A stretch of DNA of 64,000 nt from an uncultured Gammaproteobacteria bacterium (lineage in GTDB: Bacteria > Pseudomonadota > Gammaproteobacteria > GCA-002705445 > GCA-002716945), in the NCBI GenBank assembly GCA_905479195.1, contig CAJQLO010000001.1, positions 368,694-432,693 on the forward strand, written 5' to 3'. The notes under the pieces are model-generated. The model was not told the origin of the DNA, searched no databases, and saw only the letters and a program-made list of their open reading frames with translations. Each line of letters opens with the position of its first letter. The stretch's first letter is position 1. Both the position numbers and the translations under genes were made by a program. Below, piece after piece: positions 1 through 58,249 of the stretch.

Positions 1-98
1 CTATTTACAATCACTAAATATAAGTTACTATATAAGAACAATATATTGATATATAACATTAATATATCAGTAAATACTAATAAAGAGGAGATAATGAT

Positions 99-371
99 AT
101 GGGATTTCTATTCGGTAAAACAGCTATGGGTACTTATGTGGTCGTGGCGTTCTGGGTAGCCTGTTACTACTTCTTCAGCGGTATGTTTCCAATGTGGCAT
201 TTTGCTGCTGGATCAATGCCTGGGTTAGCTGGTTGGCCTGTAGCACTATTAATAGGTTTTCTATTAATTGTTGCAAATATGATAAGTGTATACTTATTCA
301 TTAAGGTTGCTGGTAATCGACCATGGGAGTGGTTTGAAGATGGAGTCTACGGACCAGGAGATGAGGGGTAA
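99..371 (+). CDS. small hypothetical membrane protein (90 aa, two predicted TM helices, Trp/His-rich)
   Basis: A strong Shine-Dalgarno (AAGAGGAG) sits 8 nt upstream of the ATG, after an AT-rich non-coding leader. The protein has hydrophobic stretches VVVAFWVACYYFF and VALLIGFLLIVANMISVYLF. Codon usage is GC-richer than the bulk, like the neighbouring fadL-like/mtoX genes. I recognise no family. Confidence 0.45.
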   Translation: MGFLFGKTAMGTYVVVAFWVACYYFFSGMFPMWHFAAGSMPGLAGWPVALLIGFLLIVANMISVYLFIKVAGNRPWEWFEDGVYGPGDEG

Positions 372-575
372 ACGAATTTAACTATAGGTACTTAATTAGT
401 ACTTTATAGTTGGATCGTTTAATGTTTAGTTTACTAAGCGTTAAATGAAACAAACGATAAAAATGTTTTTATTGTAAATGGAATTATAGGGGGAAGGATT
501 GTTCTTTTATAGACATTGATGTCTAGTCCCCAAGTATAAACGTTATTTATTATATATATATAATGAGGAAAAAAT

Positions 576-2078
576 ATGAAAATTAATAGCAATTGGAAAC
601 TTGGAGCAGCGGTAGGTACAGCCTTATCGATGGGTTCAGGTGCAGCATTTGCCGGACCACATGGTTTCGATCTACACAACGTGTTTCACGGAGCATCAGC
701 CGCTATGGCCGGTACGAGTATTGCACATGTTGAAGATCCAGTATCAGCGGTTTTCGGTAACCCTGCAACATTAACAACTTACTACGGCGGTACTAACTTT
801 ATGTTTGGTGCTACGTTCTATATGCCGCGTGCTCGCATGTCGCATGATGGATCAGCTGGGTATGCAACAGGTGAAGCAACTAATTTAGTAAACATCACTG
901 GCGGCGCTACAGGTAACACTGCAGGGTCTTACCACTTTACTGCTACATCAAAAGCTGATGTATACGCAGTACCAACAGTGGCAGTAACTCAAGACTTAAC
1001 TGGTCTTGGTATTCCTGTCGTTCTTGGTGTTGGTGTATCAGCTACATCTGGTATCGGTGTGGATTATAAACATAATTCAAACTCTTTAGGTGCAGCGGCA
1101 GAGCTTATCAATTTAGGCGTTAACGCTGGTATTGGTATGTCTATGACGCCTAACTTAGATGTTGGTGTATCTGCAACAATTACTTATGCAATGTTAGAAG
1201 CTGGTTTAACAGGTTCTGGCGGCATGACTCATGACATTGGTTTCCGTGCAACAATGGGTGCGCGTATGAAAGTAATGCCTGGTTTAACAGTTGGTGCTTA
1301 CGTGCAAACTGAACAACCGCATGAATATGATAACTTACACGTAACATCTTTCCACGGCAATAATGCTTCGGCTTTAGGTGTAGCTACTGGCCTTGTTCAA
1401 AACCAGGCATATGTTAAATGTAACGGTACAGGTGGCAACGTTTGTAGACAAGATGTGAGAGTAGAGCAACCTATGAACATAGGTCTTGGTTTTGCTTTTG
1501 ACGGTCTAATGAACGGTAACTTGTTAGTTATGCTTGATGTAACACATAAAGCATGGTCTGACGCTAGATTCTTTAATGAATTCTACGAAGACCAAGAAGT
1601 CTACTCAGTAGGTCTTCAGTTAACTCAAGGTCCAATGAAATTTAGACTTGGATACGGTTATGCTGATGATCCTTTAAAGGATAAAGTTGCTGATGGTGTT
1701 CAAATCAAAACTATCGGTGGTGTAAACACTAATGGTAGTACTTATACATCTACAATGTATCCATTGTTTATGTCGTACTTCCAAGCTATGGAAACACCAG
1801 TAATTTATAAACATCGTATATCTGCGGGTCTTGGAATCGATGGATTCTTAGCTCCAATGTTAACGCTTGATACTCATGTTGCATTCCAACTTGAAGAAGA
1901 TAAGTGTTTCGGTGCTAATCAACTTGGAGTTGAATCAATCTATGCTGGCGGAAACGCAGCAGTAGCTGGTACAGCTTTAGCTGGCGGTTTAGTGGGTCAT
2001 GGCTGTGGAGCATTGGATCATACTAAAGCTACAGTATCTTCATTTCACCTTGGTGGATCTTTAACTTGGACTTTCTAA
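576..2078 (+). CDS. FadL/OmpP1/TodX-family outer-membrane channel for hydrophobic compounds (500 aa)
   Basis: The signal peptide ends in an AFA|GPHG cleavage site. The mature N-terminus (AGPHGFDLHNVFHGASAAMAGTSIAHVEDPVSAVFGNPATLT) follows the FadL N-terminal hatch pattern (AGFQLNE...AGxxxAADDASAxxxNPAxLT). The protein is Gly/Thr/Ala-rich with beta-strand periodicity and ends in a C-terminal aromatic residue (...SLTWTF). An RBS GAGGA lies upstream. Confidence 0.7.
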   Translation: MKINSNWKLGAAVGTALSMGSGAAFAGPHGFDLHNVFHGASAAMAGTSIAHVEDPVSAVFGNPATLTTYYGGTNFMFGATFYMPRARMSHDGSAGYATGEATNLVNITGGATGNTAGSYHFTATSKADVYAVPTVAVTQDLTGLGIPVVLGVGVSATSGIGVDYKHNSNSLGAAAELINLGVNAGIGMSMTPNLDVGVSATITYAMLEAGLTGSGGMTHDIGFRATMGARMKVMPGLTVGAYVQTEQPHEYDNLHVTSFHGNNASALGVATGLVQNQAYVKCNGTGGNVCRQDVRVEQPMNIGLGFAFDGLMNGNLLVMLDVTHKAWSDARFFNEFYEDQEVYSVGLQLTQGPMKFRLGYGYADDPLKDKVADGVQIKTIGGVNTNGSTYTSTMYPLFMSYFQAMETPVIYKHRISAGLGIDGFLAPMLTLDTHVAFQLEEDKCFGANQLGVESIYAGGNAAVAGTALAGGLVGHGCGALDHTKATVSSFHLGGSLTWTF

Positions 2079-2104
2079 GTTAACTAGAAGATAATAAAAA
2101 GAAT

Positions 2105-2136
2105 AGAGGGTCACTTGCTTCGGTAGGTGGCCCTCT
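2105..2136 (+). other. intergenic hairpin (10-bp stem AGAGGGTCAC / GTGGCCCTCT with one G-U) between the fadL-like gene and mtoX; there is no U-run, so it may be an RNA-processing or stability element rather than a terminator
   Basis: Inverted repeat read directly from the sequence. Confidence 0.3.
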
Positions 2137-2169
2137 TAAACTAAGCGAAACAAATAGGAGCGCGCAATT

Positions 2170-3540
2170 ATGAAAATAAGAAAACTTATGTCAACCGTAT
2201 ACGGTATGTTGATGTCAAGCTTTCTTGCTTTAGTGCTAGTCCCAACACATGTATTCTCTGATGAGACATGCATGTCACCATATATGGCTAAGATCGTGGG
2301 TCAAGAAGACTACGTCTATGTATGGACTTTAGGACAAGTAGGGGTAGGGGATGAACAAGATAAACTGGTAACAGTTGCTGTTAACCCTGCGTCGCCACAC
2401 TATGGCAATGTAATCGGACATACTTCTGTTGGTGGTCGTAATGAAGCACATCATTCTGGTTTTACAGATGATAGGCATTATTTATGGGCAGCTACATTAG
2501 ATACTGGAAAAATATTTATTTTTGATGTTCACACGAACCCATCTAAACCTAAACTTCATAAAGTTATAACTGACTTTACGAAAGCTAGTGGTGGTATCGT
2601 TGGACCACATACAACATATGCATTACCAGGAAGAATGATGATTTCTGGTCTTTCTAACAACCAAGACTTTGGTGGTAGAACAGCGCTTGTAGAATATACA
2701 AACGATGGTACATATGTAGCTACTTATGACATGCCAACTGACGGTAATTTAAACGGTGCTGTGAAAACAGGACAATTTGCTGACGGTTATGGTTATGACA
2801 TTCGTGCATTACCACGTAGAAATGTAATGATTACATCCTCATTTACTGGATGGAATAACTACATGATGAACCTTGGTAAATTAATGGGCGATGCAGATGC
2901 TATGGGACGATTTGGTAATACAGTCGTTGTTTGGGATCTTCATACTCGTAAACCAAAGAAAGTATTTGACGTACCAGGTGCACCTCTAGAAATTAGATGC
3001 GCATGGGGTTCATCAAACAACTATTGTTTCACAACAACAGCGCTTACTTCTCAAATATGGCTTATCTATGAAAAAGATAACGAATGGCATGCTGAGTCTG
3101 TAGGTACTATTGGTGATCCATCTAAAATTCCACTACCTGTTGATATTTCAATCACAGCTGATGATAAACATCTATGGGTAAACACTTGGAATGATGGAAT
3201 GACAAGAATATTTGATATCTCTGACCCACACAATGCTGTGGAAGTTAAAGCTCATAAAATTGGCGACCAAGTAAACATGCTATCTCAAAGCTGGGATGGA
3301 AATCGTATTTACTTCACAACTTCACTATTATCTAATTGGGATAAAGGTGATGTGCCAGATGTTGAGGGTCCACCACAATTTTTCAAAGCGTATGATCAAA
3401 AGGATAATGATTTAATTCATAAATTCACAATTGATTTCGCTGCAGAAAAACTAGGTATGCCTCATCAAATGAGATTCGGAGCATATTCGTTATATTCGAA
3501 AACAGCAGATAATAAAAATTTAGCAGAACTTAATCGCTAA
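2170..3540 (+). CDS. mtoX: SBP56-family selenium-binding protein / copper-dependent methanethiol oxidase, periplasmic (456 aa)
   Basis: Clear collinearity with SELENBP1/SBP56. LVTVAVNPASPHYGNVIGH...EAHHSGF matches LATVDVDPKSPQYCQVIHR...ELHHSGW. GKIFIFDVHTNPSKPKLHKVI matches [21 protein letters not shown]. There is a C-terminal RIYFTTSLLSNWDKG block. An N-terminal signal peptide and a good RBS (AGGAG) are present. Confidence 0.85.
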   Translation: MKIRKLMSTVYGMLMSSFLALVLVPTHVFSDETCMSPYMAKIVGQEDYVYVWTLGQVGVGDEQDKLVTVAVNPASPHYGNVIGHTSVGGRNEAHHSGFTDDRHYLWAATLDTGKIFIFDVHTNPSKPKLHKVITDFTKASGGIVGPHTTYALPGRMMISGLSNNQDFGGRTALVEYTNDGTYVATYDMPTDGNLNGAVKTGQFADGYGYDIRALPRRNVMITSSFTGWNNYMMNLGKLMGDADAMGRFGNTVVVWDLHTRKPKKVFDVPGAPLEIRCAWGSSNNYCFTTTALTSQIWLIYEKDNEWHAESVGTIGDPSKIPLPVDISITADDKHLWVNTWNDGMTRIFDISDPHNAVEVKAHKIGDQVNMLSQSWDGNRIYFTTSLLSNWDKGDVPDVEGPPQFFKAYDQKDNDLIHKFTIDFAAEKLGMPHQMRFGAYSLYSKTADNKNLAELNR

Positions 3541-3604
3541 ATTGTTGTCATAGTTATTAGACACCCTCATTGGTGGTAAATAACGTAAAATGGCTGTAAA
3601 CACT

Positions 3605-3638
3605 AGGTCGCTTACTTTGCTAAGCGGCCTTTTTTTTT
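3605..3638 (+). terminator. rho-independent terminator after mtoX
   Basis: Stem AGGTCGCTTA, loop CTTTGC, stem TAAGCGGCCT, then a run of nine T (followed by an A-run, so possibly bidirectional). Confidence 0.7.
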
Positions 3639-3692
3639 GGTAAAAAAAACTCTAAAAATTTACAATTAGTTGATTTGTGGTATGATTTTGAT

Positions 3693-5675
3693 ATGGAGAA
3701 ATTAAGGATATATTTACTACTTTTAGTAGTGTTTTTCATCAACCCGAGTTACGCACAAGAACAGAGTTATACATCGACGGTATTAGCACCTGGTTATAAC
3801 CAGCTTACCTTTGACGCACCTGTTCCTGGCTCATATGTAATACCGAGCTATATGCCTGCTTCTAATGGTGATGTAATAGATGTTGATGGCCTTACTAAGT
3901 CACTCCACGATATATATGATGATAAGATTGTACTATTGAATTTCATGTACAGTACTTGTACTGATGTTAATGGCTGCCCATTAGCAACAGCAGTGTTTCA
4001 TAAAATTAAAAATATACTTGATAAAGACCCTGTTATTGGAAAACAAGTAAGCATGATTAGCTTGAGCTTTGATCCTGAAAATGATTCACCTGATGTAATG
4101 AAACTCTATGGAGATGGAACAGATTCTGGCACAGTCGATTGGAAATTTTTAACCACTAACTCAATGAATGATTTGGACCCTATACTCAACAAGTATAGCC
4201 AGCGTATAATTAAAGAATATGATGAGAAAGGAAATTATATTGGTTCTATATCGCATATTCTCAGAGTGTTTCTGATTGATAAAGATAAGAATATAAGAAG
4301 TATTTACAGTGTTTCTTTTTTACATTCTGATGTTTTGATAAATGATATAAAAACACTTTTGCATCCCGAATCTCAAAACGGAACAATGGTAGTTGCTTCT
4401 ACTGTAAATGTTGTCCCATCCGGATCATCTCTTGCAAGGCCAGGTGATGCTAAAGAAGGTTATGAGAGCGGTGATTATGTTACAGATGCTCAGTCACTAG
4501 TAAGAACTGGTGTGGCAACAGATTTATATAAAATCGCTAATTCTCCAATACTGGGGCTGCCTGAATTAAAGATGAAAGAGGGTACTGACCTAACTAGAGA
4601 GAAAATTGCTTTAGGAAGAAAAATGTTTTTTGATAGAAGATTGTCTCACACAGATACAATTTCATGTGCAATATGTCATGTACCAGAAATGGGATTTGCT
4701 CATAATGAGCTTGCAACAGCCGTTGGTACCGAAGGAAGGTCTAATATAAGAAATGCGCCAACTATTTTAAACTCAGCATTATTAACACGTCTATTTCATG
4801 ATGGAAGAGAACACTCTTTAGAGAATCAAGTTTGGGGTCCTTTACTTTCGCATAAGGAAATGGCGAATCCTGCACCTGGATACCTAATTAAAAAGATTAA
4901 AAATATTCCAGACTATGATAATTTATTTGAAGAAGCATATAACACTGGTCCGTCTATTGATACAATCAGCAAAGCATTCGCTGCCTATCAGTATACGCTT
5001 CTAAGTGGCAATTCAGACTTTGATCGCTGGTATTATGGTGGTGAAAGAAATGCTATTTCTAATAGTGCTAAAAAAGGTTTTAAATTGTTTACTGGAAAAG
5101 CTGCATGTATTACATGCCATGTAATTGGGGATGATTATGCTTTATTTACAGATGAAAAACTGCATAACACAGGCATGGGTTTTAAAGCATCTATGCATGT
5201 AGAACCGCCTATGAAGAAAGTTACTTTAGTGCCAGGATTAACCATTGATATTGATACATCTTCCTATAGAGATAATGTGGCCTTTAAAGATGAGATTGCG
5301 CCAAATGATTTAGGTTTATATACAGTAACGCAAGATCCATATGATAGGTGGAAATTTAGAACAGCGAGTTTGCGTAACGTAGAGATTACCGGGCCATACA
5401 TGCATAATGGTGCATTACAGAATTTAAAAGATGTTGTGGAATTTTATAATAAAGGCGGGATTAAAGAATCTGGCAAGATGAAAAATGAGATGCTAAGTCC
5501 TTTAATGTTCCCTTTAAATTTATCTGAAAATGAGATGAATAATATTGTTGATTTCCTTAAAACTTTAACAGGTTCAAATGTTAATGAGCTTATCTTGGAT
5601 GCTAAGGCTGCACCTATTGGTGAGATATCACTAAATGATCCAAACTGGTTTCATGAAAATAAACCAAAATACTAA
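3693..5675 (+). CDS. fusion protein: N-terminal Sco1/SenC-like copper chaperone domain plus C-terminal MauG/di-haem cytochrome c peroxidase domain (about 660 aa; the start could be the upstream ATG at 3675)
   Basis: A signal peptide starts at MEKLRIYLLLLVVFFINPSYA. Residues ~80-230 carry the Sco1 pattern (LLNFMYSTCTDVNGCP...ISLSFDPENDSPDVMKLYG...HILRVFLIDKDKNIRSIY). The C-terminal half has two CxxCH haem motifs in CCP/MauG context (LGRKMFFDRRLSHTDTISCAICH... and GFKLFTGKAACITCH...YMHNGAL). Sco1/SenC and MauG genes follow mtoX in Hyphomicrobium as separate genes. Confidence 0.75.
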   Translation: MEKLRIYLLLLVVFFINPSYAQEQSYTSTVLAPGYNQLTFDAPVPGSYVIPSYMPASNGDVIDVDGLTKSLHDIYDDKIVLLNFMYSTCTDVNGCPLATAVFHKIKNILDKDPVIGKQVSMISLSFDPENDSPDVMKLYGDGTDSGTVDWKFLTTNSMNDLDPILNKYSQRIIKEYDEKGNYIGSISHILRVFLIDKDKNIRSIYSVSFLHSDVLINDIKTLLHPESQNGTMVVASTVNVVPSGSSLARPGDAKEGYESGDYVTDAQSLVRTGVATDLYKIANSPILGLPELKMKEGTDLTREKIALGRKMFFDRRLSHTDTISCAICHVPEMGFAHNELATAVGTEGRSNIRNAPTILNSALLTRLFHDGREHSLENQVWGPLLSHKEMANPAPGYLIKKIKNIPDYDNLFEEAYNTGPSIDTISKAFAAYQYTLLSGNSDFDRWYYGGERNAISNSAKKGFKLFTGKAACITCHVIGDDYALFTDEKLHNTGMGFKASMHVEPPMKKVTLVPGLTIDIDTSSYRDNVAFKDEIAPNDLGLYTVTQDPYDRWKFRTASLRNVEITGPYMHNGALQNLKDVVEFYNKGGIKESGKMKNEMLSPLMFPLNLSENEMNNIVDFLKTLTGSNVNELILDAKAAPIGEISLNDPNWFHENKPKY

Positions 5676-5681
5676 GGTTAT

Positions 5682-6203
5682 ATGAAAAAATTATTATCGA
5701 TATTTGTTTTACTGCCTACGCTTTTTTTTACATATAATTTAAATGCATCTGGCTACTTAATGGACCCTATGCCTAGCCATGAAAGAGCTCCAGAATTTAG
5801 TTTGATAGGCATGGATGAAAAAGTCCATACGTTAAAAAGCTTAGAAGGAAAATTCTTGTTAGTAAATTTTTGGGCTACTTGGTGTAATCCTTGTAAAGCT
5901 GAGATGCCTACCTTAGAAGCTATACACAAAAGATTTGATAATGAAAAATTCACTGTTATAGGAATTCATGTTGGACCAGGACCTGAAAATATTCGAAATT
6001 ATTTAGATATAAGCCCTGTGTCTTTTCCAATTTTTATTGATATGGATTTAGAGTATGACTGGGGAGTTCCTGGATTGCCGACAACATTTTTGATTAGCCC
6101 AGAAGGTAACATGTTATATAGAGCAGTAGGGAAAAGAGATTTTTCTTCTCCAGATATGGAATCATTTTTTATTAAGTTAGTAGATGAACACTTTGGAAAA
6201 TAA
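5682..6203 (+). CDS. periplasmic TlpA/ResA-family thiol:disulfide oxidoreductase (thioredoxin fold, 173 aa)
   Basis: Signal peptide plus the WATWCNPC active-site motif (a WCxxC thioredoxin motif in TlpA context). Separated by 6 nt from the upstream gene. Confidence 0.8.
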   Translation: MKKLLSIFVLLPTLFFTYNLNASGYLMDPMPSHERAPEFSLIGMDEKVHTLKSLEGKFLLVNFWATWCNPCKAEMPTLEAIHKRFDNEKFTVIGIHVGPGPENIRNYLDISPVSFPIFIDMDLEYDWGVPGLPTTFLISPEGNMLYRAVGKRDFSSPDMESFFIKLVDEHFGK

Positions 6204-6207
6204 TACT

Positions 6208-7005
6208 TTATAGTTTAAATAAAAAAACTTCTGAAAGATTATTACTATTTGTATTCCCATAATATCTTATTAAATTTTTATTTTCTAAAAATATTTTTTT
6301 ACTGATTACATTTGATATTTCTTTAAAGTAAAATTTTGTAAAATTATATTCAGCATCATTAGATCTGGCGTACTCTTTAACTACTTTCTTGTCTTTTGTA
6401 AAAATAGTTCCACGCTTTATGCCTTCAGCAAATATTTTACCTATCTTTCCCTTTATGATAATTGTCCCAGATAGCATATCATTACAAGCATAATCACCTA
6501 TATTACCCTCTATAATTACATTACCTCTCCGCATTCTCTCAATGGAATTATTTCCAACATTACCTTTTACATATAAGAAACCATCAACTATACCAACATT
6601 TCCATGATTAGTTTTCCCACCTGTATAGTCACCAGAGTTTCCATATATAAATATAGAGCCTCCTTTAATTCCAGATGCTGCATAATCTAGTGCATTACCA
6701 TATAATATAAGTTTTCCAGAAAGCATTTGTTCGCCAAATGAATAACCAACATTTCCATGAACGGTAATATTAATATTATTTAACTCTTTGCCGATATTAT
6801 CCATTAAATCAACTGAAGATTGGATAATAATGTTTTTTATATCATTACCCTTTATGCTGAAAAGCTCTTTAACTTTAAACTGTTTATTTCCATAAGATAT
6901 AATCTGAGATGAAAGCCTAGATATATCTTTATAAGAATTAGATAAGAATGACATATCTATCCTATATTTTATTTTCTTCTTTAGTTTTAGTATCACTGGA
7001 TTCAT
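6208..7005 (-). CDS. fhcC: formyltransferase/hydrolase complex subunit C (FwdC/FhcC-like beta-helix protein)
   Basis: Repeated GN(V/I)G..G beta-helix motifs (HGNVGYSFG, YGNALDYAASG, YGNSGDYTGG, KGNVGNN, EGNIGDYAC) typical of FwdC. 4-nt ATGA overlap with fhcD. Confidence 0.75.
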   Translation of the reverse strand: MNPVILKLKKKIKYRIDMSFLSNSYKDISRLSSQIISYGNKQFKVKELFSIKGNDIKNIIIQSSVDLMDNIGKELNNINITVHGNVGYSFGEQMLSGKLILYGNALDYAASGIKGGSIFIYGNSGDYTGGKTNHGNVGIVDGFLYVKGNVGNNSIERMRRGNVIIEGNIGDYACNDMLSGTIIIKGKIGKIFAEGIKRGTIFTKDKKVVKEYARSNDAEYNFTKFYFKEISNVISKKIFLENKNLIRYYGNTNSNNLSEVFLFKL

Positions 7006-7898
7006 TTCATGACTTTCCTTAAATGGAAATGATATTGCCCTAATTTACCACCATAATTTCCTGCAGATATGGCAACTATATCTTTTTTTATTTTCATTTT
7101 AGAAATACTTTGTATCGAAGTTTTTATTGCCTCATTGATATCATCAAATGTCAGTCCATTGATAACTATTTCCATCACACAATTTACATTAGCTGGTAGA
7201 GTACTCTTTGTAATACTCTTTAGTGTTGGACAAAAAGCGTCATTAGTAGATGCTATTAAAGCCTTGTATTTTGAACCAACTTTTGATCCAGACCTCACAA
7301 CCCCGCCAGGAAAAGGAGTTATAATATTTGGCTGATTTTTGATTGAATTTATTGCTGTCTCACAGGCAGACAAGCATGATTTTCTATTAGTACTCAATAC
7401 TAAAAAATTACCACCACCTATTGCTGGTACACGTGCAGTTGATTCTTCACAAAGAAATTCTCCATCCATGACTGGTATACGCCAAAATCTTCTGTCTTGT
7501 ATTTTTTTTGATATTTGATGGCCATCACCAAAGTATCTTAAGTTTTTACCTAAAGGAATTACATCTTCTCCGATCATCCCAGAAAATATAGCGGTTGTTG
7601 GGCAAGTGAGAATACACTGACCAACCCTGACCTCTAATTGCTTTTCTAGCTGACTTCTAGACATTGAAAATAGTAAGATTGAATAGCCTGGCCTGTTATC
7701 AGGTGTTTCTGACGATTTTAATTGTTTTTCGATGCCAGCTTCTATGCCGCATGCAATAACTGATGTAGCAAATCCAGTAAAAGAGTCACAGGCATGTTTT
7801 GCCCATTTTAAATTATCTGCTGTTACGATTATACGACTGGCTTTCATATTAAAAGCTTCGGCAAACGTATTATCTATTTTTATACCATTATAAATCAT
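7002..7898 (-). CDS. fhcD: formylmethanofuran:tetrahydromethanopterin formyltransferase (Ftr/FhcD)
   Basis: N-terminus MIYNGIKIDNTFAEAFNMKASRIIVTA matches the Ftr N-terminus (xINGVEIEDTFAEAFxMxGTRVLITA). Length 298 aa. Embedded in the fhc operon. Confidence 0.85.
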   Translation of the reverse strand: MIYNGIKIDNTFAEAFNMKASRIIVTADNLKWAKHACDSFTGFATSVIACGIEAGIEKQLKSSETPDNRPGYSILLFSMSRSQLEKQLEVRVGQCILTCPTTAIFSGMIGEDVIPLGKNLRYFGDGHQISKKIQDRRFWRIPVMDGEFLCEESTARVPAIGGGNFLVLSTNRKSCLSACETAINSIKNQPNIITPFPGGVVRSGSKVGSKYKALIASTNDAFCPTLKSITKSTLPANVNCVMEIVINGLTFDDINEAIKTSIQSISKMKIKKDIVAISAGNYGGKLGQYHFHLRKVMK

Positions 7899-9553
7899 TG
7901 CTTTCTTTTATATTTGCAATCATTAACATAAACAGGGCTGCCTACCAGGCTATTCATTTCATCATCGCTTAATATATAGTTATCTAATTTCATTGTATGA
8001 TATTTTTCAAAAAACTTACCTAAATCTTTTTCAATTGATTTATCATAATCTGGCTTAACAGTATGGGTTTTGCCCCAAACATATTCTTTTATTTTTCCAT
8101 TTTCTACAACTATTTTTCCATCTTTAATAACTAGAGATGGATGAGCAAACATCTCTTCTATATCTTTTTTATTTTTATCATAAACGGTTATGTCTGCATC
8201 AGATCCCTCAGATAGATTACCTTTCTCTTTTAACCCTAAAATTTTTGCGGGCGCTGATCTTGTCATGATGGAAATTTCGTTTAATGTATATTCTCTCTTA
8301 AGGGTGTGAAGAATAGTATGATTAAGAATTTCTTTTGGTAGTTGATTTAAAATATCATTACGAAAAGTTTTATCCATTAATAATTTAATCAAATGAGGAT
8401 ACGAGGTAAATGGTGCCCCATTAGGATGATCTGTAGTTAAAAAAACTTTCCAAGGATCTTCGGCTAATAAAAATATTTCTAAACCTATAGCCCATTGAAG
8501 AGCATTTACAAAACTTTTATCTTTATATTTAAAAGGAACTACGCCGCACCCTGCGTCACATTCTATGTCCATACACATCCATTTATTTGGATGAGCATGA
8601 TTATGGTTTCTATATTGAGACATACTATCACCAGACATAGTTACAGTTTGTCCAAACATTATTTGTCCTACATCACAAGTTAGATTCTCTATCTTATTTA
8701 AGTAGTTTGAAATTTCTACTGCTGCTGAAGAAAAACCCTTATCTCCATTATTGCCATAACTTTGAAATTGTATATGAGTTAAGTGAATTGGTAATCCATT
8801 CGCAGCTTTTATAGTTTCTATTGTCGATAGAAAATTTCCAGGAATACCTAAGTTACTGCAATGTACGTGTAATGGGTGAGGAACTCCCAAATCATATATT
8901 GCTCTTGTGAGCTTCTCCACTATTTCTCTTGGTGTTATACCATAGTATTTAGATTTCTCATCAACATTTAAGGCTCTTTGATTAAACTTAAATGCATTAA
9001 TGCCACCAGGATTAACAACTTTTATTCCCAAGGATTGTGTTGCACTTAAAATAAAAGCAACATAATCATTTATTGTTGATTGACTAGATTTCTTCCTTAG
9101 CAAATCTAAAAAGTAATCATCATTTCCTAGTAAAGCGTAACCGCCTTTATCAATAAATGGAATATCTGACATCTCTGCATGAGCTTGCCTTGCATTTATA
9201 GGTAGTAGAGCTGGTTCAAAACAAGTTGTATAACCCATTTCTATATACTTTAATCCAGTTTTAAGAGTAGATGGGGCAATAATAGCCGAAGAATCATATC
9301 CGGGTTCTTTTTCGTTATGAAATTCTTCCAGCATTAATCTTGCAATGTTAACCTTTCCTCCACCAATATGAGTATGAAGATCAATAGCTCCTGGCATTAT
9401 TATTTTATCTGAGCAATTTATGATTTTATCAACCTTAGACCTAACATTTTTCTTATCAATAATTTTTCCATCTTGAATAAAAATATCTTTTTTTACATTA
9501 GATATTTTGTTATGAGGGTCGTATACATTTCCAGATTTTAATTGTGTAATCAA
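7895..9553 (-). CDS. fhcA: formylmethanofuran dehydrogenase subunit A homologue (amidohydrolase superfamily; FhcA)
   Basis: 552 aa with an amidohydrolase metal-binding signature (PGAIDLHTHIGGG). Position between fhcB and fhcD. Confidence 0.8.
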   Translation of the reverse strand: MITQLKSGNVYDPHNKISNVKKDIFIQDGKIIDKKNVRSKVDKIINCSDKIIMPGAIDLHTHIGGGKVNIARLMLEEFHNEKEPGYDSSAIIAPSTLKTGLKYIEMGYTTCFEPALLPINARQAHAEMSDIPFIDKGGYALLGNDDYFLDLLRKKSSQSTINDYVAFILSATQSLGIKVVNPGGINAFKFNQRALNVDEKSKYYGITPREIVEKLTRAIYDLGVPHPLHVHCSNLGIPGNFLSTIETIKAANGLPIHLTHIQFQSYGNNGDKGFSSAAVEISNYLNKIENLTCDVGQIMFGQTVTMSGDSMSQYRNHNHAHPNKWMCMDIECDAGCGVVPFKYKDKSFVNALQWAIGLEIFLLAEDPWKVFLTTDHPNGAPFTSYPHLIKLLMDKTFRNDILNQLPKEILNHTILHTLKREYTLNEISIMTRSAPAKILGLKEKGNLSEGSDADITVYDKNKKDIEEMFAHPSLVIKDGKIVVENGKIKEYVWGKTHTVKPDYDKSIEKDLGKFFEKYHTMKLDNYILSDDEMNSLVGSPVYVNDCKYKRKQ

Positions 9554-9562
9554 GATTTCTTC

Positions 9563-10813
9563 CTATGCTAAGTTATCTAATATATTTTGCGTAGACGGTA
9601 ATTTAATATCTCTAATTTTTTTTAATGCGACAGAGACCACTTTATCAGTTCTAAACATTATACCTTCATAGTCAATTCCAGGTATACCTACAGGTATAAA
9701 AATATCAGGTGTCGAAGTAAAAGTAGTATTTGGATGACCTAAAACTATATTGGTAATATCGCTATTAATCTTTAATTTCCCAGAATTAATAGTTGAAACA
9801 TGAATTACCACATCCACATTTTTTTCATCTATTAATTTTTGGCTATTGAATGCATTACGGTCATGTTTAAAAGTCCCGTCCATATGTTTTATGCTAGATG
9901 GAAATCCAGTCATCCATGTTAATGCTTGCGAAGAAGTTTCGTCAGCGAGAATTCCTGATATTGGCATACATGCCGCTCTAGATGATACGTTAAGATCAAC
10001 AATATACTTACAAATAGCAGCAATTATTTTTTTTGGGTTAAGAGTTTTGATGAAATCTGAAGCAGTCCATGTTGCGACTATATATTTGGATTTATTAAGA
10101 ATATTTTTAATCTTAATAAGCTCGCTTTTTTTCAGTCCTTTTAATAACTTTAAGTCATCAGTAGCAAGTAATTTTAAAAAATCACCAACTAGATTTAAGT
10201 CTAGCTTGATGTTTGTGATATTACATTTTCCTTTCCCTTTAATATTTTTAACAATCTTTGCGGAAAAATTACCAATCAATATAATCTCTTTTTTGCTTGT
10301 AGGGAATAAGCTATTTTTGGGAGTTAATACTTTATCGATTAATCTTGGTGTTTTAGTCAAAACTTCATTACCAAATATAATAATGGCATCAGCCCGATTT
10401 TTAGTTTCAGTCAATGAGGTAGCCATATACCCAGTTCTTTGAACAACCCCAATATTTTGATATAAAAATTTAGAATTAACATGATCAACTATACAGTTTC
10501 GTTGTGATGCAAAACTTAATATTGATCTTAGTCCGGCTAATTCTACCCCATGATTTAAAATTAATGTTTCATTATGCCCTTTAATAAGATTTGAAATTTT
10601 TTTTAATGCTTCTGACAGCTTAACTACTTTTTTACCTACCATAGGCATGACTATACTTTTTGTATTTAGGTTATAAGATTCAATTTTTTTAGCACAAACA
10701 GTATTTTTTTGGTCAACCTTATATTGGTCATTTGTCGTTGTTACACTTATATCATCACAATGCATAGAGCAGAAAGGGCATGTTAAGTTTTTAATATTAT
10801 TTTGGCTAGTCAT
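9563..10813 (-). CDS. fhcB: formylmethanofuran dehydrogenase subunit B homologue (FhcB)
   Basis: The N-terminal LTCPFCSMHCDD...C motif aligns with the FwdB VVCPFCGTLCDD Fe-S motif, and a TKNRADAIIIFG block matches FwdB VKNRADVVVYWG. 416 aa. Confidence 0.8.
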   Translation of the reverse strand: MTSQNNIKNLTCPFCSMHCDDISVTTTNDQYKVDQKNTVCAKKIESYNLNTKSIVMPMVGKKVVKLSEALKKISNLIKGHNETLILNHGVELAGLRSILSFASQRNCIVDHVNSKFLYQNIGVVQRTGYMATSLTETKNRADAIIIFGNEVLTKTPRLIDKVLTPKNSLFPTSKKEIILIGNFSAKIVKNIKGKGKCNITNIKLDLNLVGDFLKLLATDDLKLLKGLKKSELIKIKNILNKSKYIVATWTASDFIKTLNPKKIIAAICKYIVDLNVSSRAACMPISGILADETSSQALTWMTGFPSSIKHMDGTFKHDRNAFNSQKLIDEKNVDVVIHVSTINSGKLKINSDITNIVLGHPNTTFTSTPDIFIPVGIPGIDYEGIMFRTDKVVSVALKKIRDIKLPSTQNILDNLA

Positions 10814-26826: not shown

Positions 26827-27164
26827 CGAGAGTCAACTATATGATCGCTGTGTAAGCAGAGGAAAGTCCGGGCTCCATAGGCAATAGTGCCAGGTAACGC
26901 CTGGGAAACGTGAGTTTACGGAAAGTGCTACAGAAAATAACCGCTAATATTTTATATTAGTAAGGGTGAAAAGGTGAGGTAAGAGCTCACCACATACGAG
27001 GTAACAAGTATGGTTGAGGCAAACCCCACTAGGAGCAAAGCAAATTTATAGCATTTTGTCAGCCTAAGACACGCTATATGGTAAGCTGCTAGAGGTTTTT
27101 GGCGACAAAAATCCCAGATTAATGATCATACATGACAGAACCCGGCTTATCGGTTGGCTCTTAG
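26827..27164 (+). ncRNA. rnpB: RNase P RNA (bacterial type A, M1 RNA)
   Basis: Contains the universal P4 sequences GAGGAAAGTCCGGGCTCCATAGG and ACAGAACCCGGCTTATCGG, plus the GGTAACGCCTGGG, GTAAGGGTGAAA.GGTG.GGTAAGAGC.CACC and GGCAAACCCCAC..GGAGCAA blocks in the canonical order. The 5' end GAGAGTCAAC pairs with the 3' GTTGGCTCT as P1. Confidence 0.9.
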
Positions 27165-27350
27165 ACTACTTTTTAATTATAAAATCACCATATCAAGATA
27201 AGCTCTTGTTAAATATAAGTATTTGATTAATATAGACTATTTTTAGTATATTCTATGTATTTATGAAGCTAAAGCCTTGCATACATCAATAAAAAGTCAT
27301 ATAGTGTTGATATATGGTAATTTATGTAAGATTGTGGGGAATAATGGTAA

Positions 27351-27803
27351 ATGTTTAAAGGTATCCATAACATAAACTTGGATGGAAAAGGCAGATTAAC
27401 TATACCAACCAAGTATAGAAATACTATTAGTGATCAGTCGAATGGCAATATGGTTGTTACGATTGATTCAGAAGAAAAATGCTTACTCCTTTATCCGGCA
27501 AATATTTTCTCTAATATTGAAACTAAAATCAATGACTTGCCAAGCTTTACTAAAAATACTAGAAGAATACAACGCTTACTAATAGGTCATGCAGAGGATT
27601 TAGAGTTAGATTCAAGCGGAAGAATATTATTACCTAAGCCTCTTAGACTCGTTGCTGAGATGTCTAAAAAAGTCACTTTAATAGGACAAGGTCAAAAATT
27701 TGAAATTTGGAGCGATGATATTTGGAATAATAAAGTCAATAAATGGAGATCTGAAGAAACAGATGAATCAGAGGAATCTGTTTTATCAGATATTAGAATT
27801 TAA
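27351..27803 (+). CDS. mraZ: transcriptional regulator MraZ
   Basis: MFKGIHNINLDGKGRLTIPTKYR... canonical MraZ with duplicated DUF-type halves. 150 aa. First gene of the dcw cluster. Confidence 0.9.
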   Translation: MFKGIHNINLDGKGRLTIPTKYRNTISDQSNGNMVVTIDSEEKCLLLYPANIFSNIETKINDLPSFTKNTRRIQRLLIGHAEDLELDSSGRILLPKPLRLVAEMSKKVTLIGQGQKFEIWSDDIWNNKVNKWRSEETDESEESVLSDIRI

Positions 27804-28000
27804 TGAAATTAGATAGATATTATAGAACATTGGGTGTAACTGGAAATGAAGACGTTAGAGTCATCAAACAGGCATTTATGAGAGTTGCTCAAAAATATCA
27901 TCCTGATAAGAACCCTGATGATATTAAGTCAACTGAGAAATTCATAGATGCAAGAAATGCATATGAACATATTATGAAATATAAAAAAGGTATTCAATAA
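27803..28000 (+). CDS. stand-alone J-domain protein (65 aa) inserted in the dcw cluster
   Basis: RYYRTLGVTGNEDVRVIKQAFMRVAQKYHPDKNPDD...ARNAYEHI is a canonical DnaJ J-domain with the HPD motif. Start overlaps the mraZ stop and the stop overlaps the rsmH start (TAATG both sides). Confidence 0.65.
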   Translation: MKLDRYYRTLGVTGNEDVRVIKQAFMRVAQKYHPDKNPDDIKSTEKFIDARNAYEHIMKYKKGIQ

Positions 28001-28944
28001 TGATTGCTCCGAAACATATACCCGTAATGCTTAATCAGTCTATTAATGCTATGAAGATTGTGCCTAATGGTACTTATGTTGATGCGACATTTGGATTTGG
28101 CGGGCATTCAAGAAAGATTTTAGATGCTTTAGATTCCGATGGTCGACTCTATGCAATCGATAAAGATACATATGCGATTAATATGATTAGAGAAGATATT
28201 ATTAGCGACAAAAGATTCACCCTTAAACATGGATGTTTTTCAGAATTAGAAAATTTTTCTAAAGAATGGGGTATACATGGTTCAATAAATGGAATTCTAT
28301 TTGATTTAGGAGTTTCCTCACATCATCTTGATGAAGCAGGTAGAGGATTCAGTTTTAATAAAAATGGACCTATAGATATGAGGTTTGATCAATCATCTGG
28401 TATTTCTGCTTGCGAATGGTTAGAAACCGTTGATGAACAAACGTTATCACATGTAATTTGGAAGTATGGAGATGAAAGGTACTCGAGACGTATCGCTAGA
28501 GCAATAGTATACCAGAGGGAGCAAGAAAAAATTTCAGATACTGGACAGTTAGCTAAAATAATAGATAAAGCTATGCCTAGAAATGAAAAGCATAAACATA
28601 ATGCCACAAGAACGTTTCAAGCCATAAGAATCTTCATGAATAAAGAGTTAGAGGTTTTAAAAGATGTATTGAGTAATAGTTATAATATTCTGGCTCCAAA
28701 AGGTAGATTAGTACTTTTAACATATCATTCTCTAGAAGATAGAGTAATTAAAAATTTTCTTGCTGTAACGGATGAAAATATTTCTACTCCAAGAAACTTA
28801 CCTATAAAAAATGAATTTTTAAAAAAAATGTTCAATATTATTGCTAAGTCAATTAAACCTGATAAGGATGAGATTGATTTAAATCCAAGATCTAGATCTG
28901 CGAAATTAAATATACTGGAAAAAGCTAATGAGGATTATGTTTAA
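28000..28944 (+). CDS. rsmH: 16S rRNA (cytosine1402-N4)-methyltransferase
   Basis: HIPVMLNQSI...YVDATFGFGGHS...LGVSSHHLD motifs of MraW/RsmH. 314 aa. Confidence 0.9.
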   Translation: MIAPKHIPVMLNQSINAMKIVPNGTYVDATFGFGGHSRKILDALDSDGRLYAIDKDTYAINMIREDIISDKRFTLKHGCFSELENFSKEWGIHGSINGILFDLGVSSHHLDEAGRGFSFNKNGPIDMRFDQSSGISACEWLETVDEQTLSHVIWKYGDERYSRRIARAIVYQREQEKISDTGQLAKIIDKAMPRNEKHKHNATRTFQAIRIFMNKELEVLKDVLSNSYNILAPKGRLVLLTYHSLEDRVIKNFLAVTDENISTPRNLPIKNEFLKKMFNIIAKSIKPDKDEIDLNPRSRSAKLNILEKANEDYV

Positions 28945-54304: not shown

Positions 54305-55219
54305 ATGCTGACTAAAATCATACATTATGTAAAATCTTTAAGTGTATTTAAGGTTTTTATATTCATCTTTATTGCTGGTCTTCTTTATGGCGGAATATCT
54401 TTATATTTAAAATATACTGGTTTCGCTCAATTTATGAATAAGACAAGAATTATTGCAGTAAAAGCTATGCCAGTAAAAATTGATACTATACAAAAAACAT
54501 ATCGGGCATTATCTGTAATTGAAGCACGTGAATCAATTGATATCACCTCCAAAGTTAACGGTCTCCTGGATAATATTCACTATAAAGAAGCTACTACTAT
54601 TAAGAAAGGTGATTTACTTTTTTCTATAATTTCTTCTGACACTATTGGCTTAACTCAGATACATGCTCCTTTTTCAGGAATGATAGGTCTTAGTGAGAAA
54701 AACATAGGAGACGCAGTATCTAAGGGAGAGCTCCTTACTTCATTAAATGAGCATAGTTATATGAAATTACCAATTGATTTGCCAGAGCGCATACTAGGCT
54801 ATTTAACAAATAAATTATCATTTGTTGCTATTACAGACAGTATTCCAGGTACTACATATGAAGGTACGTTAGAATATGTGAACACTAAAATAGATGTTAA
54901 AACTAGAACCATCAGCGCTTATGCTTTACTAGATAATAAAAATAATATGTTAAAGCCTGGTTTATTAATGAAATTGGATATTTCTCTAGAAGAGACAGAT
55001 GGCGCAATTTTGATACCAGAAAAATCATTATTAAGTATTAATAAAAAACACTATGTTTATGTTGCAGACAATGATGTTGCTAAATTAACAGTAGTACAGA
55101 CAGGCATTAGAAATAATGCTTTGGTAGAGATTAAATCTGGGCTGAATACTTTTGATAAAGTGATATTTATGGGTCATGAAAAGCTTAAAGATGGATCTAA
55201 AATAAAAATTATAGAGTAA
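54305..55219 (+). CDS. RND efflux membrane fusion (periplasmic adaptor) protein
   Basis: N-terminal TM/signal, HlyD-like lipoyl/beta-barrel pattern. Immediately precedes the RND permease. Confidence 0.7.
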   Translation: MLTKIIHYVKSLSVFKVFIFIFIAGLLYGGISLYLKYTGFAQFMNKTRIIAVKAMPVKIDTIQKTYRALSVIEARESIDITSKVNGLLDNIHYKEATTIKKGDLLFSIISSDTIGLTQIHAPFSGMIGLSEKNIGDAVSKGELLTSLNEHSYMKLPIDLPERILGYLTNKLSFVAITDSIPGTTYEGTLEYVNTKIDVKTRTISAYALLDNKNNMLKPGLLMKLDISLEETDGAILIPEKSLLSINKKHYVYVADNDVAKLTVVQTGIRNNALVEIKSGLNTFDKVIFMGHEKLKDGSKIKIIE

Positions 55220-55222
55220 TAG

Positions 55223-58200: not shown

Positions 58201-58249
58201 TACACTGTATCTAGTGCCTGCATTATATAGATTGATAGAAAATAAGTGA
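55223..58249 (+). CDS. RND-family efflux permease (AcrB/CzcA-like, 12 TM)
   Basis: 1008 aa. Two large periplasmic loops between TM1-2 and TM7-8. N-terminal RRPVLAAVISM.LVLIGLVSY typical of AcrB. Confidence 0.9.
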   Translation: MHISDITVRRPVLAAVISMFLVLIGLVSYDKLSIREYPDIDKPVVTVSTVYRGASSEIVERDITQVLEDSLSGISNIKEIKSTSKDEISQIRVEFNLSRDMESAANDVREKVSRAIPRLPKDSEQPRVAKSDTDARAILWIGFTSEQLDSIALNDYLDRNIIDRLSILPGVASITVGGERKYAIRIWLDPDKMSSRQITVDDILNAINKENIEKPAGRLDSVDREIGIQVKSKLSDMNMFNDIVIKTYDDRKIRLGDVAEIIIGAESDRGFLRANNENAIGLGVVRQTKSNVLKVASAIKKELDLIRPTLPSNIDMFVGYDQSVFVNESISEVRFALLISMLMVIGVIYYFLTSPAATFIPTITIPVSLISTFYVIYALGYSLNVLTFLALVLAIGLIVDDSIVVLENIKRRIENGEKAFEASIEGAKQITFVVIATTLVLVAVFLPLSFMGGKTGRLFIEFGVVLSFAVIFSSIVALTLTPMLCSKLIKNKEKIDKEPVLIRKFRKFYRESLLESQNNPKKVYLFSIMMIVISILLFQVVQKELAPTEDRGIFIISITAPEGSTLSYTDSIVRQVEKTLKPYVKNKEINTVFSIVAPGFSGKPGEVNSAFMFTTLTDWGSRRHQKDIVREIFPQLLSIPGARIYAINPPSLGGSRFTPPVQLVIGGGNYEDVNEWGNTLIKESAGLKLRNANIDYKITSPRLNLKINRDKAYELGVSADSITRTMEILLASNQVTTFSKDGLTYNVILQADKSFRINQNSLDNIFVKSSNSSLIPLSNLVTYEETSTSQSLKRINRLPSTIFSASLAPGYPLGDALKDLIGVTDSVLPANAKISFSGQSKEYYESGSSLEITILFAILIVYLVLAAQFESFRKPLAIILTVPIALTAGLYTLFLTGTSINVYSQIGFLMLIGLITKNGILVVEFANQLRKQGMSVDEAIFESSLIRLRPVLMTTISTLLGAVPLVMSSGAGAESRYSMAIVVLGGITLSSLVTLYLVPALYRLIENK

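Follow-up and report, generated by a model that had tools for sequence, protein, structure and literature searches.

We examined positions 99 to 6203 of a 64,000-nucleotide (nt) stretch of DNA from an uncultured Gammaproteobacteria bacterium (GenBank assembly GCA_905479195.1, contig CAJQLO010000001.1, positions 368,694 to 432,693; the whole stretch is hereinafter designated the window). Five plus-strand open reading frames (ORFs) were verified in this region (99-371, 576-2078, 2170-3540, 3675-5675 and 5682-6203), encoding in this order a 90-amino acid (aa) membrane protein (hereinafter designated p90), a predicted FadL/TodX-type outer-membrane channel, the predicted methanethiol oxidase MtoX, a predicted fusion of a Sco1/SenC-like domain with a dihaem domain, and a TlpA-like thioredoxin (Table 1). 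Rfam and tRNA scans returned no match within 1-6203. Comparison with related loci shows that 99-6203 is the 3′ two-thirds of a conserved, nine-gene cluster of about 10 kb, which belongs to a clade of uncultured, low-GC marine Gammaproteobacteria and joins two units, an AlkB-type oxygenase cassette and a methanethiol oxidase set.

The joining of the two units is a stable property of the clade. When one genome per species was scanned, 19 loci were found to carry the channel gene, and p90, the channel, mtoX, the Sco-dihaem fusion, tlpA and the convergent fhcC-fhcD-fhcA genes follow one another in the same order in every sufficiently long locus. A metagenome scan with the GST-like protein of the cassette yielded about 48 further contigs of the window's clade in which the order is the same. 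With the count covering 18 GTDB species representatives and these roughly 48 contigs, each as far as the contig reaches, identical gene order is far beyond what chance would produce. Clade-wide amino acid identity is 83-97% for p90, 83-98% for MtoX and 62-87% for the channel, the least conserved gene.

The 5′ part of the cluster lies outside the window and was read from the relatives (L-numbers denote the relatives' loci or contigs that were compared with the window). Upstream of p90 and on the same strand, these encode a 431-aa membrane protein of the FA_desaturase family (hereinafter designated AlkB-like), a 59-aa ferredoxin-like ORF, a 216-aa GST-like protein and a reductase with Fer2, FAD and NAD domains, and a stand-alone Sco1 gene is divergent, upstream of the AlkB-like gene. 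The full order reads Sco on the minus strand, then AlkB-like, GST-like, reductase, p90, outer-membrane protein, MtoX, Sco-dihaem and TlpA on the plus strand, and finally fhcCDA on the minus strand. The AlkB-like protein matches Pfam PF00487 with 99 bits and aligns to the alkane 1-monooxygenases AlkB 8sbb and 8f6t (E about 1e-28 to 4e-28) across all histidine boxes (HELSH, HVYNHH, LEHYGL and ADHHD). The reductase, composed of Fer2, FAD_binding_6 and NAD_binding_1, is of the BenC/MmoC type and constitutes the electron-transfer partner; no rubredoxin was seen in the cassette. The upstream cassette is present in L030, whose DNA is 96% identical to that of the window, and hence almost certainly also in the genome from which the window derives.

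Several loci show variations on the 5′ part of the cassette. At L001 5257-5436, the gap that separates the AlkB-like from the GST-like gene holds the 59-aa ferredoxin-like ORF; a homologue occupies the same gap in L077, and L022 has a Fer4_19 protein beside the reductase. A second, inverted AlkB-like copy (82% identical) stands beside the first at L013 2208-3458 and L042 1051-2301. Stand-alone AlkB-like genes of 73-80% identity occur in L024-L027, from other low-GC (31-33%) marine genomes, with no GST-like, p90 or channel gene nearby, and adjoin a DsrC-family gene in L026 and L027. The notion that the AlkB-like gene always lies within the cassette was rejected on account of these stand-alone copies.

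The assignment of the central enzyme is supported by family scores and by active-site residues. The product of mtoX scores 693.1 bits over residues 29-443 against the NCBIfam MtoX equivalog NF052453 (MthilOxMtoX), whose cut-off is 650, and 161 bits against Pfam SBP56, whose threshold is 34. Its N-terminus, MKIRKLMSTVYGMLMSSFLALVLVPTHVFS/DE, was judged by eye to be a Sec signal peptide, pointing to a periplasmic location. Through alignment to 2ECE, the Sulfolobus SBP56 structure, the histidines of the window protein were matched by sequence context, and H94 and H95 (EAHHSG), H147 (GPHTT) and H432 (MPHQMR) occupy the contexts of the 2ECE-aligned histidines. Judged from these contexts, they correspond to H89, H90, H140 and H412 of Hyphomicrobium VS MtoX, which have been proposed as copper ligands (Eyice et al., PMC5739008). 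The first-pass annotation had already named this ORF an SBP56/MtoX protein, and the equivalog score, the signal peptide and the four proposed ligand histidines bear it out: the ORF is assigned as MtoX, a predicted methanethiol oxidase. Given both the score above the cut-off and the ligand contexts, the protein neither lacks an SBP56 match nor falls into an unrelated clade; it groups with characterised MtoX, not with the eukaryote-like selenium-binding proteins. The reaction established for the MtoX family is periplasmic and converts CH3SH and O2 to formaldehyde (HCHO), H2S and H2O2.

The fusion gene begins 152 nt 3′ of mtoX. Its ORF had been called mechanically from a TTG at 3675; ATG 3693 is the likelier start, since the relatives align from residue 7 and the signal peptide begins there. 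The protein comprises a SCO1-SenC domain (Pfam, residues 80-206, 51 bits versus 22.8) and a CCP_MauG domain (Pfam, residues 309-456, 160 bits) with two haem c motifs of the CxxCH type, CAICH at 325 and CITCH at 472, in agreement with its earlier description as a Sco1/SenC-MauG-like protein. The Sco domain carries a C-x5-C-P motif (CTDVNGCP, residues 89-96; consensus C[TQA]D[IV]NGCP), which is invariant in 30 of 30 relatives, in place of the canonical CxxxC, which is absent, and is for this reason termed a variant Sco domain with putative copper binding. The downstream histidine, in ISHILRVFLID, is present. The stand-alone Sco that is divergent upstream of the cluster (L001 2986-3543) retains the canonical CPDICP. 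The dihaem domain lies below both relevant NCBIfam cut-offs (MauG TIGR03791, 205 versus 444; MbnH TIGR04039, 208 versus 363), and its best PDB sequence matches are bacterial cytochrome c peroxidases (bCCP; E 5e-38), with MauG at E 7e-23 and MbnH also matched. By its sequence the domain is a member of the bCCP/MauG superfamily, and "MauG-like" is a label from the literature.

The tlpA-like gene opens 6 nt past the stop codon of the fusion gene. Its product, likewise already recognised as a TlpA thioredoxin, matches AhpC-TSA (69.9 bits) and Redoxin (62.5 bits) in Pfam, has a WCNPC motif at 67-71 and begins with a signal or anchor sequence. It scores below the NCBIfam cut-offs for ResA (92 versus 170 bits) and TlpA (70 versus 230 bits), and is best described as TlpA-like only. 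Bradyrhizobium TlpA reduces ScoI. From the domain content of the window proteins, the Sco domain may insert copper into MtoX, TlpA may keep the Sco cysteines reduced, and the dihaem domain may carry out an oxidative maturation step.

This core has published counterparts. In many bacteria mtoX is followed by SCO1/senC and mauG, and in Methylophaga thiooxydans the latter two form one fused gene (Eyice et al. 2017, PMC5739008). Both mto clusters of M. thiooxydans DMS010 contain mtoX, a sco1/mauG fusion, tlpA, pdo, sqrB and sulP, and the products of mtoX, the fusion gene and tlpA bear signal peptides (Kroeber & Schaefer 2019, PMC6548844). The window shares with M. thiooxydans DMS010 the trio of mtoX, a SCO1/SenC-MauG-type fusion and a TlpA-like protein of about 165-173 aa, in the same order and predicted to be periplasmic. 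Since the order mtoX-sco1/mauG(fusion)-tlpA is published (PMC5739008, PMC6548844), the mtoX core is not new in kind. The two systems differ in what lies 3′ of the trio, pdo, sqrB and sulP in M. thiooxydans but convergent fhcCDAB in the window, and in that an AlkB-type cassette with a FadL channel lies directly upstream in the window, whereas the Methylophaga clusters are described without them. Hyphomicrobium sp. VS and Ruegeria pomeroyi (PMC5739008) likewise have a copper-dependent SBP56 MtoX with the four conserved histidines and SCO1/SenC and MauG-like functions downstream; in those organisms, however, Sco and MauG are separate genes rather than fused, and no TlpA or channel is described (PMC5739008). 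R. pomeroyi has an IclR regulator upstream of the operon, and none was seen at the window locus. What is new is that, as a conserved feature of an abundant and uncultured marine clade, the mtoX unit is joined to a cassette of an AlkB-type oxygenase and a FadL channel.

In the gap that separates mtoX from the maturation genes, a terminator scan found a 10-bp stem with five G-C pairs at 3605-3630, followed by a T9 run. A hairpin with the same GGCCGCTTA/TAAGCGGCC stem recurs at this position in 14 of 14 relatives; the loops vary, one compensatory G:C to A:T change is found in L004, and the T-run is weaker in about half of the 14. The strong terminator reported earlier at this position is thus confirmed by the scan and by its conservation. 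The accompanying proposal that mtoX is expressed above the maturation genes agrees, by analogy, with M. thiooxydans, in which mtoX transcripts are several-fold above those of the fusion gene (PMC6548844): RNA-seq values are 17350 and 4064 for mtoX, 1428 and 1543 for sco1/mauG, and 454 for the TlpA-like gene (PMC6548844). The conserved hairpin would ensure a high enzyme-to-maturase ratio, keeping the maturation genes lower.

The channel is divergent in sequence, and its assignment rests on fold and on its homologues. Searched directly, the ORF at 576-2078 has no Pfam or NCBIfam match even at E≤10 and no PDB sequence match, and a profile built from 35 homologues gave no FadL among PDB sequences; a Pex5 match of that profile was set aside as spurious. 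The AlphaFold (AF2) model (pLDDT 63, pTM 0.66) retrieves with Foldseek, as its top 24 PDB matches, TodX (3bs0), FadL, TbuX, CymD or a P. aeruginosa FadL homologue without exception (E 5e-18 to 7e-13, TM 0.47-0.58 on the query). Channel homologues at 39-41% identity match Pfam Toluene_X (PF03349); the L014 homologue (39% identity) scores 52.9 bits, those of L020 and L022 have precomputed Toluene_X matches, and P0117 (70% identity) scores 30.0 bits against a gathering score of 29.7. The protein has a signal peptide (..AAFA/GPHGF), the sequence FGNPATL at 60-66 (NPA at 62-64) and a C-terminal phenylalanine (..LTWTF). The NPA motif is a FadL-family signature, and the "delta NPA" FadL mutant entry 2r4o was among the fold-search results. 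On this basis the ORF is predicted to encode a divergent FadL/TodX-type channel for small hydrophobic molecules. The earlier designation of this protein as a FadL/TodX-type channel holds at the level of fold and of Toluene_X-positive homologues; a direct Pfam search does not return the family, so that membership in PF03349 follows by transitive homology. The DNA of L030 is 96% identical to window 2-1345 and 1419-8679, and about 75 nt of the channel gene, at roughly 1345-1419, remain unaligned; this stretch is probably a hypervariable surface loop.

p90, noted earlier as a 90-aa protein with two transmembrane (TM) segments and a strong ribosome-binding site (RBS), is indeed a real gene. It has an AGAGGAG RBS and two hydrophobic segments, and 11 pairwise comparisons gave 324 synonymous versus 57 nonsynonymous codon differences. 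No Pfam or NCBIfam family matches it, and a phmmer search of 1.84 billion representatives returned 11 matches, nine of which are relatives or fragments from the same clade (84-95% identical); the other two are weak and probably spurious. Small p90-like proteins (64-77 aa) that align with p90, sharing its two-TM topology and, close to the C-terminus, an invariant W-x-W, occur in L014, L020, L022, L077, L087 and L107, where their genes likewise come after that for the GST-like protein or the reductase; these distant proteins are recognised by position, topology and the W-x-W motif alone.

Two sets of loci without mtoX bear on the question of which unit p90 and the channel belong to. In the high-GC lineages L014, L020, L022 and L023, the AlkB-like gene, the GST-like gene, a 64-77-aa two-TM protein, a Toluene_X channel and an SCO4226-like gene lie together, and no mtoX was found within about 10 kb of the cassette. 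The GST-like scan also yielded about 30 contigs from other lineages (GC 32-61%) with the GST-like, reductase and p90-like genes and neither channel nor mtoX; the AlkB-like gene usually precedes where the contig reaches, though it was not detected in some, such as L107, and housekeeping genes (gluQ-RS-like, dksA, xseA, guaB, guaA) come next. Because p90 and the channel are found with the cassette in lineages that lack a nearby mtoX, they are components of the AlkB-type cassette, and only in this clade do they adjoin mtoX. p90 is the last inner-membrane component of the cassette and may serve the hydroxylase complex as an anchor or as a small membrane subunit.

The first-pass annotation had read the same region differently, taking the channel and p90 for dedicated MtoX accessories, with the channel importing methanethiol or another volatile organosulfur compound and 99-6203 forming a self-contained unit of uptake, catalysis and maturation. 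The channel gene does precede mtoX on the same strand, the gap of 91 bp contains no predicted terminator, the two are adjacent in every clade member, and a FadL-type protein is co-induced with mtoX on dimethyl sulfide (DMS) in M. thiooxydans (PMC6548844). Against this, in the four high-GC loci the orthologous channel and p90-like genes come after the AlkB-like and GST-like genes while mtoX is absent from the surrounding 10 kb or so, in the roughly 30 further loci a p90-like gene stands behind the reductase and both channel and mtoX are lacking, and the published Methylophaga and Hyphomicrobium mto clusters are described without a channel. We regard such an arrangement as distinctly unlikely. 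A channel specific to MtoX was rejected on synteny, from the loci that have the channel and no nearby mtoX, and the region does not stand as a complete unit either: p90 and the channel are the end of a cassette that lies mostly 5′ of the window.

We consider the following explanation of the whole cluster the probable one. A first unit consists of an AlkB/XylM-type hydroxylase, the ferredoxin-like and GST-like proteins, the Fer2-FNR reductase, p90 and the channel, only the last two being encoded inside the window; the second is the known methanethiol oxidase set of mtoX, the sco1/senC-dihaem fusion and tlpA. A volatile compound, small and hydrophobic, would enter through the FadL-type channel and would be converted by the AlkB-type hydroxylase, supplied by reductase and ferredoxin, to the substrate of MtoX, most plausibly methanethiol derived from DMS or another methyl thioether; the formaldehyde would then enter the tetrahydromethanopterin (H4MPT) pathway. 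Hydroxylation of a DMS methyl group would give a hemithioacetal that decomposes to methanethiol and formaldehyde. Pseudomonas AlkB is reported to O-demethylate methyl ethers and to sulfoxidise thioethers. Given these activities, both demethylation and sulfoxidation of DMS are chemically possible, and only demethylation would explain the link to MtoX. The reaction proposed for the cassette is that of DmoA of Hyphomicrobium sulfonivorans, an FMNH2-dependent enzyme that converts DMS, O2 and reductant to methanethiol and formaldehyde; DmoA is a soluble flavin enzyme of the luciferase family, unrelated to AlkB-type proteins in sequence or fold, and the likeness is one of proposed function only.

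The architecture of the cassette also recalls hydrocarbon oxidation. As in XylMA/XylN, CymAaAb/CymD and AlkB/AlkL, an eight-histidine di-iron membrane hydroxylase is combined with a TodX/CymD-like channel, and the Fer2-FNR reductase resembles XylA and CymAb. XylN and AlkL are the partner channels of hydrocarbon monooxygenase systems, and CymD (PDB 6z34) was among the Foldseek matches of the window channel. The cassette could on these grounds be an ordinary alkane, hydrocarbon or lipid hydroxylase system that lies beside mtoX by chance in a streamlined genome: a hydroxylase with a Fer2-FNR reductase and a FadL channel is the classic hydrocarbon arrangement, solved structures of alkane 1-monooxygenases can be aligned with the AlkB-like protein through all histidine boxes (8sbb, E 4e-28), JGI labels its homologues "alkane 1-monooxygenase", and both stand-alone AlkB-like genes and cassette copies embedded among housekeeping genes exist. 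The cassette differs, however, from the XylMA, CymAaAb and AlkB systems in adding the GST-like protein, the 59-aa ferredoxin-like protein and the two-TM p90, in lacking downstream alcohol or aldehyde dehydrogenases, and in being physically joined to mtoX in this clade. That joining is strictly conserved across species whose orthologues of the neighbouring genes are 45-70% identical, which speaks against chance, and no alcohol or aldehyde dehydrogenase or beta-oxidation gene accompanies the cassette in any locus examined. Further points against a hydrocarbon role are the ArsR-rhodanese regulator and MsrB directly upstream of the cassette in L077, the 29- to 136-fold induction of the corresponding M. 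thiooxydans gene families by DMS, not by a hydrocarbon, and the induction by DMS, at the protein level, of the cassette orthologue MDMS009_82. A hydrocarbon or lipid function is in our judgement unlikely.

The induction data come from the published DMS and methanol cultures of M. thiooxydans, the organism in which the primary DMS-degrading enzyme was not found, neither dmoA nor ddh being present (PMC6548844). Among the transcripts most strongly induced by DMS (values on DMS/methanol; Table S6, PMC6548844), a protein with an FA-desaturase domain reads 1359/10, a NAD-binding oxidoreductase 618/12, the HbN globin MDMS009_199 601/21, and MDMS009_906, an aromatic hydrocarbon degradation membrane protein of the FadL/TodX family, 1469/18; the desaturase, oxidoreductase and globin genes lie on one strand. 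From these data, M. thiooxydans genes of the cassette families are 29- to 136-fold up on DMS. The protein MDMS009_82 is 9.3-fold up on DMS (Table S5, PMC6548844). Along its full length it shares 74-76% identity with the product of the SCO4226-like gene that immediately follows the channel gene in L014, L020, L022 and L023. The joining of the units in the window's clade and their co-induction in Methylophaga together make the cassette a candidate monooxygenase for DMS, or a related thioether, that feeds MtoX. Texts from 2019, 2022 and December 2025 list the enzyme that converts DMS to methanethiol in Methylophaga and related marine Gammaproteobacteria as unidentified, and our literature search found no paper that assigns an AlkB-type or membrane-bound DMS monooxygenase. 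We therefore propose, tentatively, that the cassette is a hitherto unrecognised membrane-bound DMS (or methyl-thioether) monooxygenase that would demethylate DMS to methanethiol and formaldehyde.

Regulators and accompanying genes outside the window's clade touch on the same question. In L077 (42% GC), the AlkB-like cassette is immediately preceded, at 6617-8014, by a gene that fuses an ArsR-family helix-turn-helix domain with rhodanese and then by an MsrB-like gene; these neighbours hint at regulation of the cassette by sulfur or redox state. At L087 3371-6131, a MerR regulator with a weak match to a B12-binding domain is divergent from the AlkB-like gene, and the order is AlkB-like, truncated bacterial globin, GST-like, reductase and p72, the globin between the AlkB-like and GST-like genes paralleling the DMS-induced HbN of M. 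thiooxydans.

The same observations can be read as a response to sulfide, methanethiol or H2O2 stress, in which the cassette would repair or modify lipids, or detoxify by-products such as dimethyl disulfide or dimethyl trisulfide, and would be co-regulated with mtoX because methanethiol oxidation causes these stresses. Kroeber and Schaefer indeed ascribe the induction of desaturase and reductase to membrane-lipid homeostasis during H2O2 stress (PMC6548844); ArsR-rhodanese, MerR, MsrB and truncated globin accompany the cassette in L077 and L087, and the cassette is widespread and often in a housekeeping neighbourhood. On the other hand, a dedicated FadL/TodX-type uptake channel is hard to reconcile with an enzyme whose substrates are the cell's own lipids, the cassette families show a fold induction of the same order as mtoX, and M. 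thiooxydans still lacks an assigned primary DMS enzyme. We judge a stress function to be very unlikely.

A number of points nevertheless weigh against the cassette as supplier of MtoX. The L077 (ArsR-rhodanese, MsrB) and L087 (MerR/B12-binding) regulators would fit a sulfur-stress response equally well, and a general role is compatible both with the many cassette copies that sit among housekeeping genes and with the close AlkB-like homologues (73-80%) that stand alone in other low-GC genomes. Terminator-like hairpins after the AlkB-like (L001 5105-5129) and GST-like (6171-6200) genes suggest several transcription units rather than one operon. The channel model is only moderately confident (pLDDT 63). 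On the side of M. thiooxydans, MDMS009_226, 61, 199 and 906 were compared by annotation or Pfam-type names, MDMS009_82 being the one of five compared by sequence, and motifs of the GST-like protein and p90 were not found in Table S9 of the M. thiooxydans study. AlkB-type enzymes are often labile in extracts. As cited in PMC6548844, Boden et al. (2010) did not detect NADH-dependent DMS monooxygenase activity in M. thiooxydans extracts.

The fate of the formaldehyde is suggested by the next genes. The fhcCDAB genes, convergent with tlpA, are the first part of a one-carbon (C1) island that runs to about 24965, and the fhc neighbourhood is conserved in every relative with enough sequence. Between 6208 and 24965 the island encodes fhcCDAB, beta-ribofuranosylaminobenzene 5′-phosphate (RFAP) synthase, mch, mptN, fae, ATP-grasp ligases, an MfnB-like 4-(hydroxymethyl)-2-furancarboxaldehyde phosphate (4-HFC-P) synthase, a DUF447 protein and pterin-binding proteins; it is an island of H4MPT-linked formaldehyde oxidation and of H4MPT and methanofuran cofactor synthesis, and thereby marks the organism as a C1 oxidiser. 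As the gene order suggests, formaldehyde from MtoX would pass to Fae and the adjacent H4MPT pathway. Among the scanned ORFs of the 64-kb window, no sulfide-oxidation genes (sqr, pdo, sox) and no sulP were seen.

Of the biogenic sulfur gases that leave the ocean, DMS is the main one, and bacteria consume most of it. Two independent lines of association, gene joining and co-induction, nominate a clonable candidate and a set of marker genes by which DMS consumption could be traced in ocean metagenomes. If the proposal is true, the cassette would be the missing first enzyme of DMS catabolism in M. thiooxydans and in abundant uncultured marine Gammaproteobacteria, and in the window's clade, hard-wired to MtoX and the H4MPT pathway, it would form part of a single gene island leading from DMS to CO2 and sulfide. 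The mtoX unit alone adds only another member to a known family, and should the candidate fail, the cluster would be an ordinary example of the known methanethiol oxidase operon.

Table 1 Features of the region 99-6203 and the adjoining fhc genes in window coordinates.
Feature	Coordinates	Strand	Evidence
p90, 90-aa two-TM protein with C-terminal PWEWF	99..371	+	AGAGGAG RBS, two hydrophobic segments
FadL/TodX-type outer-membrane channel (predicted)	576..2078	+	Fold match and Toluene_X-positive homologues
mtoX, SBP56-family periplasmic copper-dependent methanethiol oxidase (predicted)	2170..3540	+	NF052453 equivalog, Pfam SBP56
Hairpin 3′ of mtoX and ahead of the maturation genes, an intrinsic terminator or attenuator	3605..3638	+	Terminator scan
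Secreted Sco1/SenC-like and dihaem bCCP/MauG-superfamily fusion (predicted)	3693..5675	+	Pfam SCO1-SenC, CCP_MauG
TlpA/ResA-like periplasmic thiol:disulfide oxidoreductase (predicted)	5682..6203	+	Pfam AhpC-TSA, Redoxin
fhcC, fhcD, fhcA, fhcB; H4MPT formyltransferase/hydrolase complex	6208..10813	-	NCBIfam one_C_dehyd_C, one_C_fhcD, one_C_dehyd_A, one_C_dehyd_B

Further downstream, the window contains a bacterial RNase P class A RNA at 26829-27165 (Rfam RF00010, 295 bits), followed at 27351-28944 by mraZ and mraW, which, judging from the sizes of the following ORFs, look like the start of a dcw cell-division cluster. At 54305-58249 lies a resistance-nodulation-division (RND) efflux pair, composed of a HlyD-type membrane-fusion protein and an AcrB-family pump of 1008 aa.

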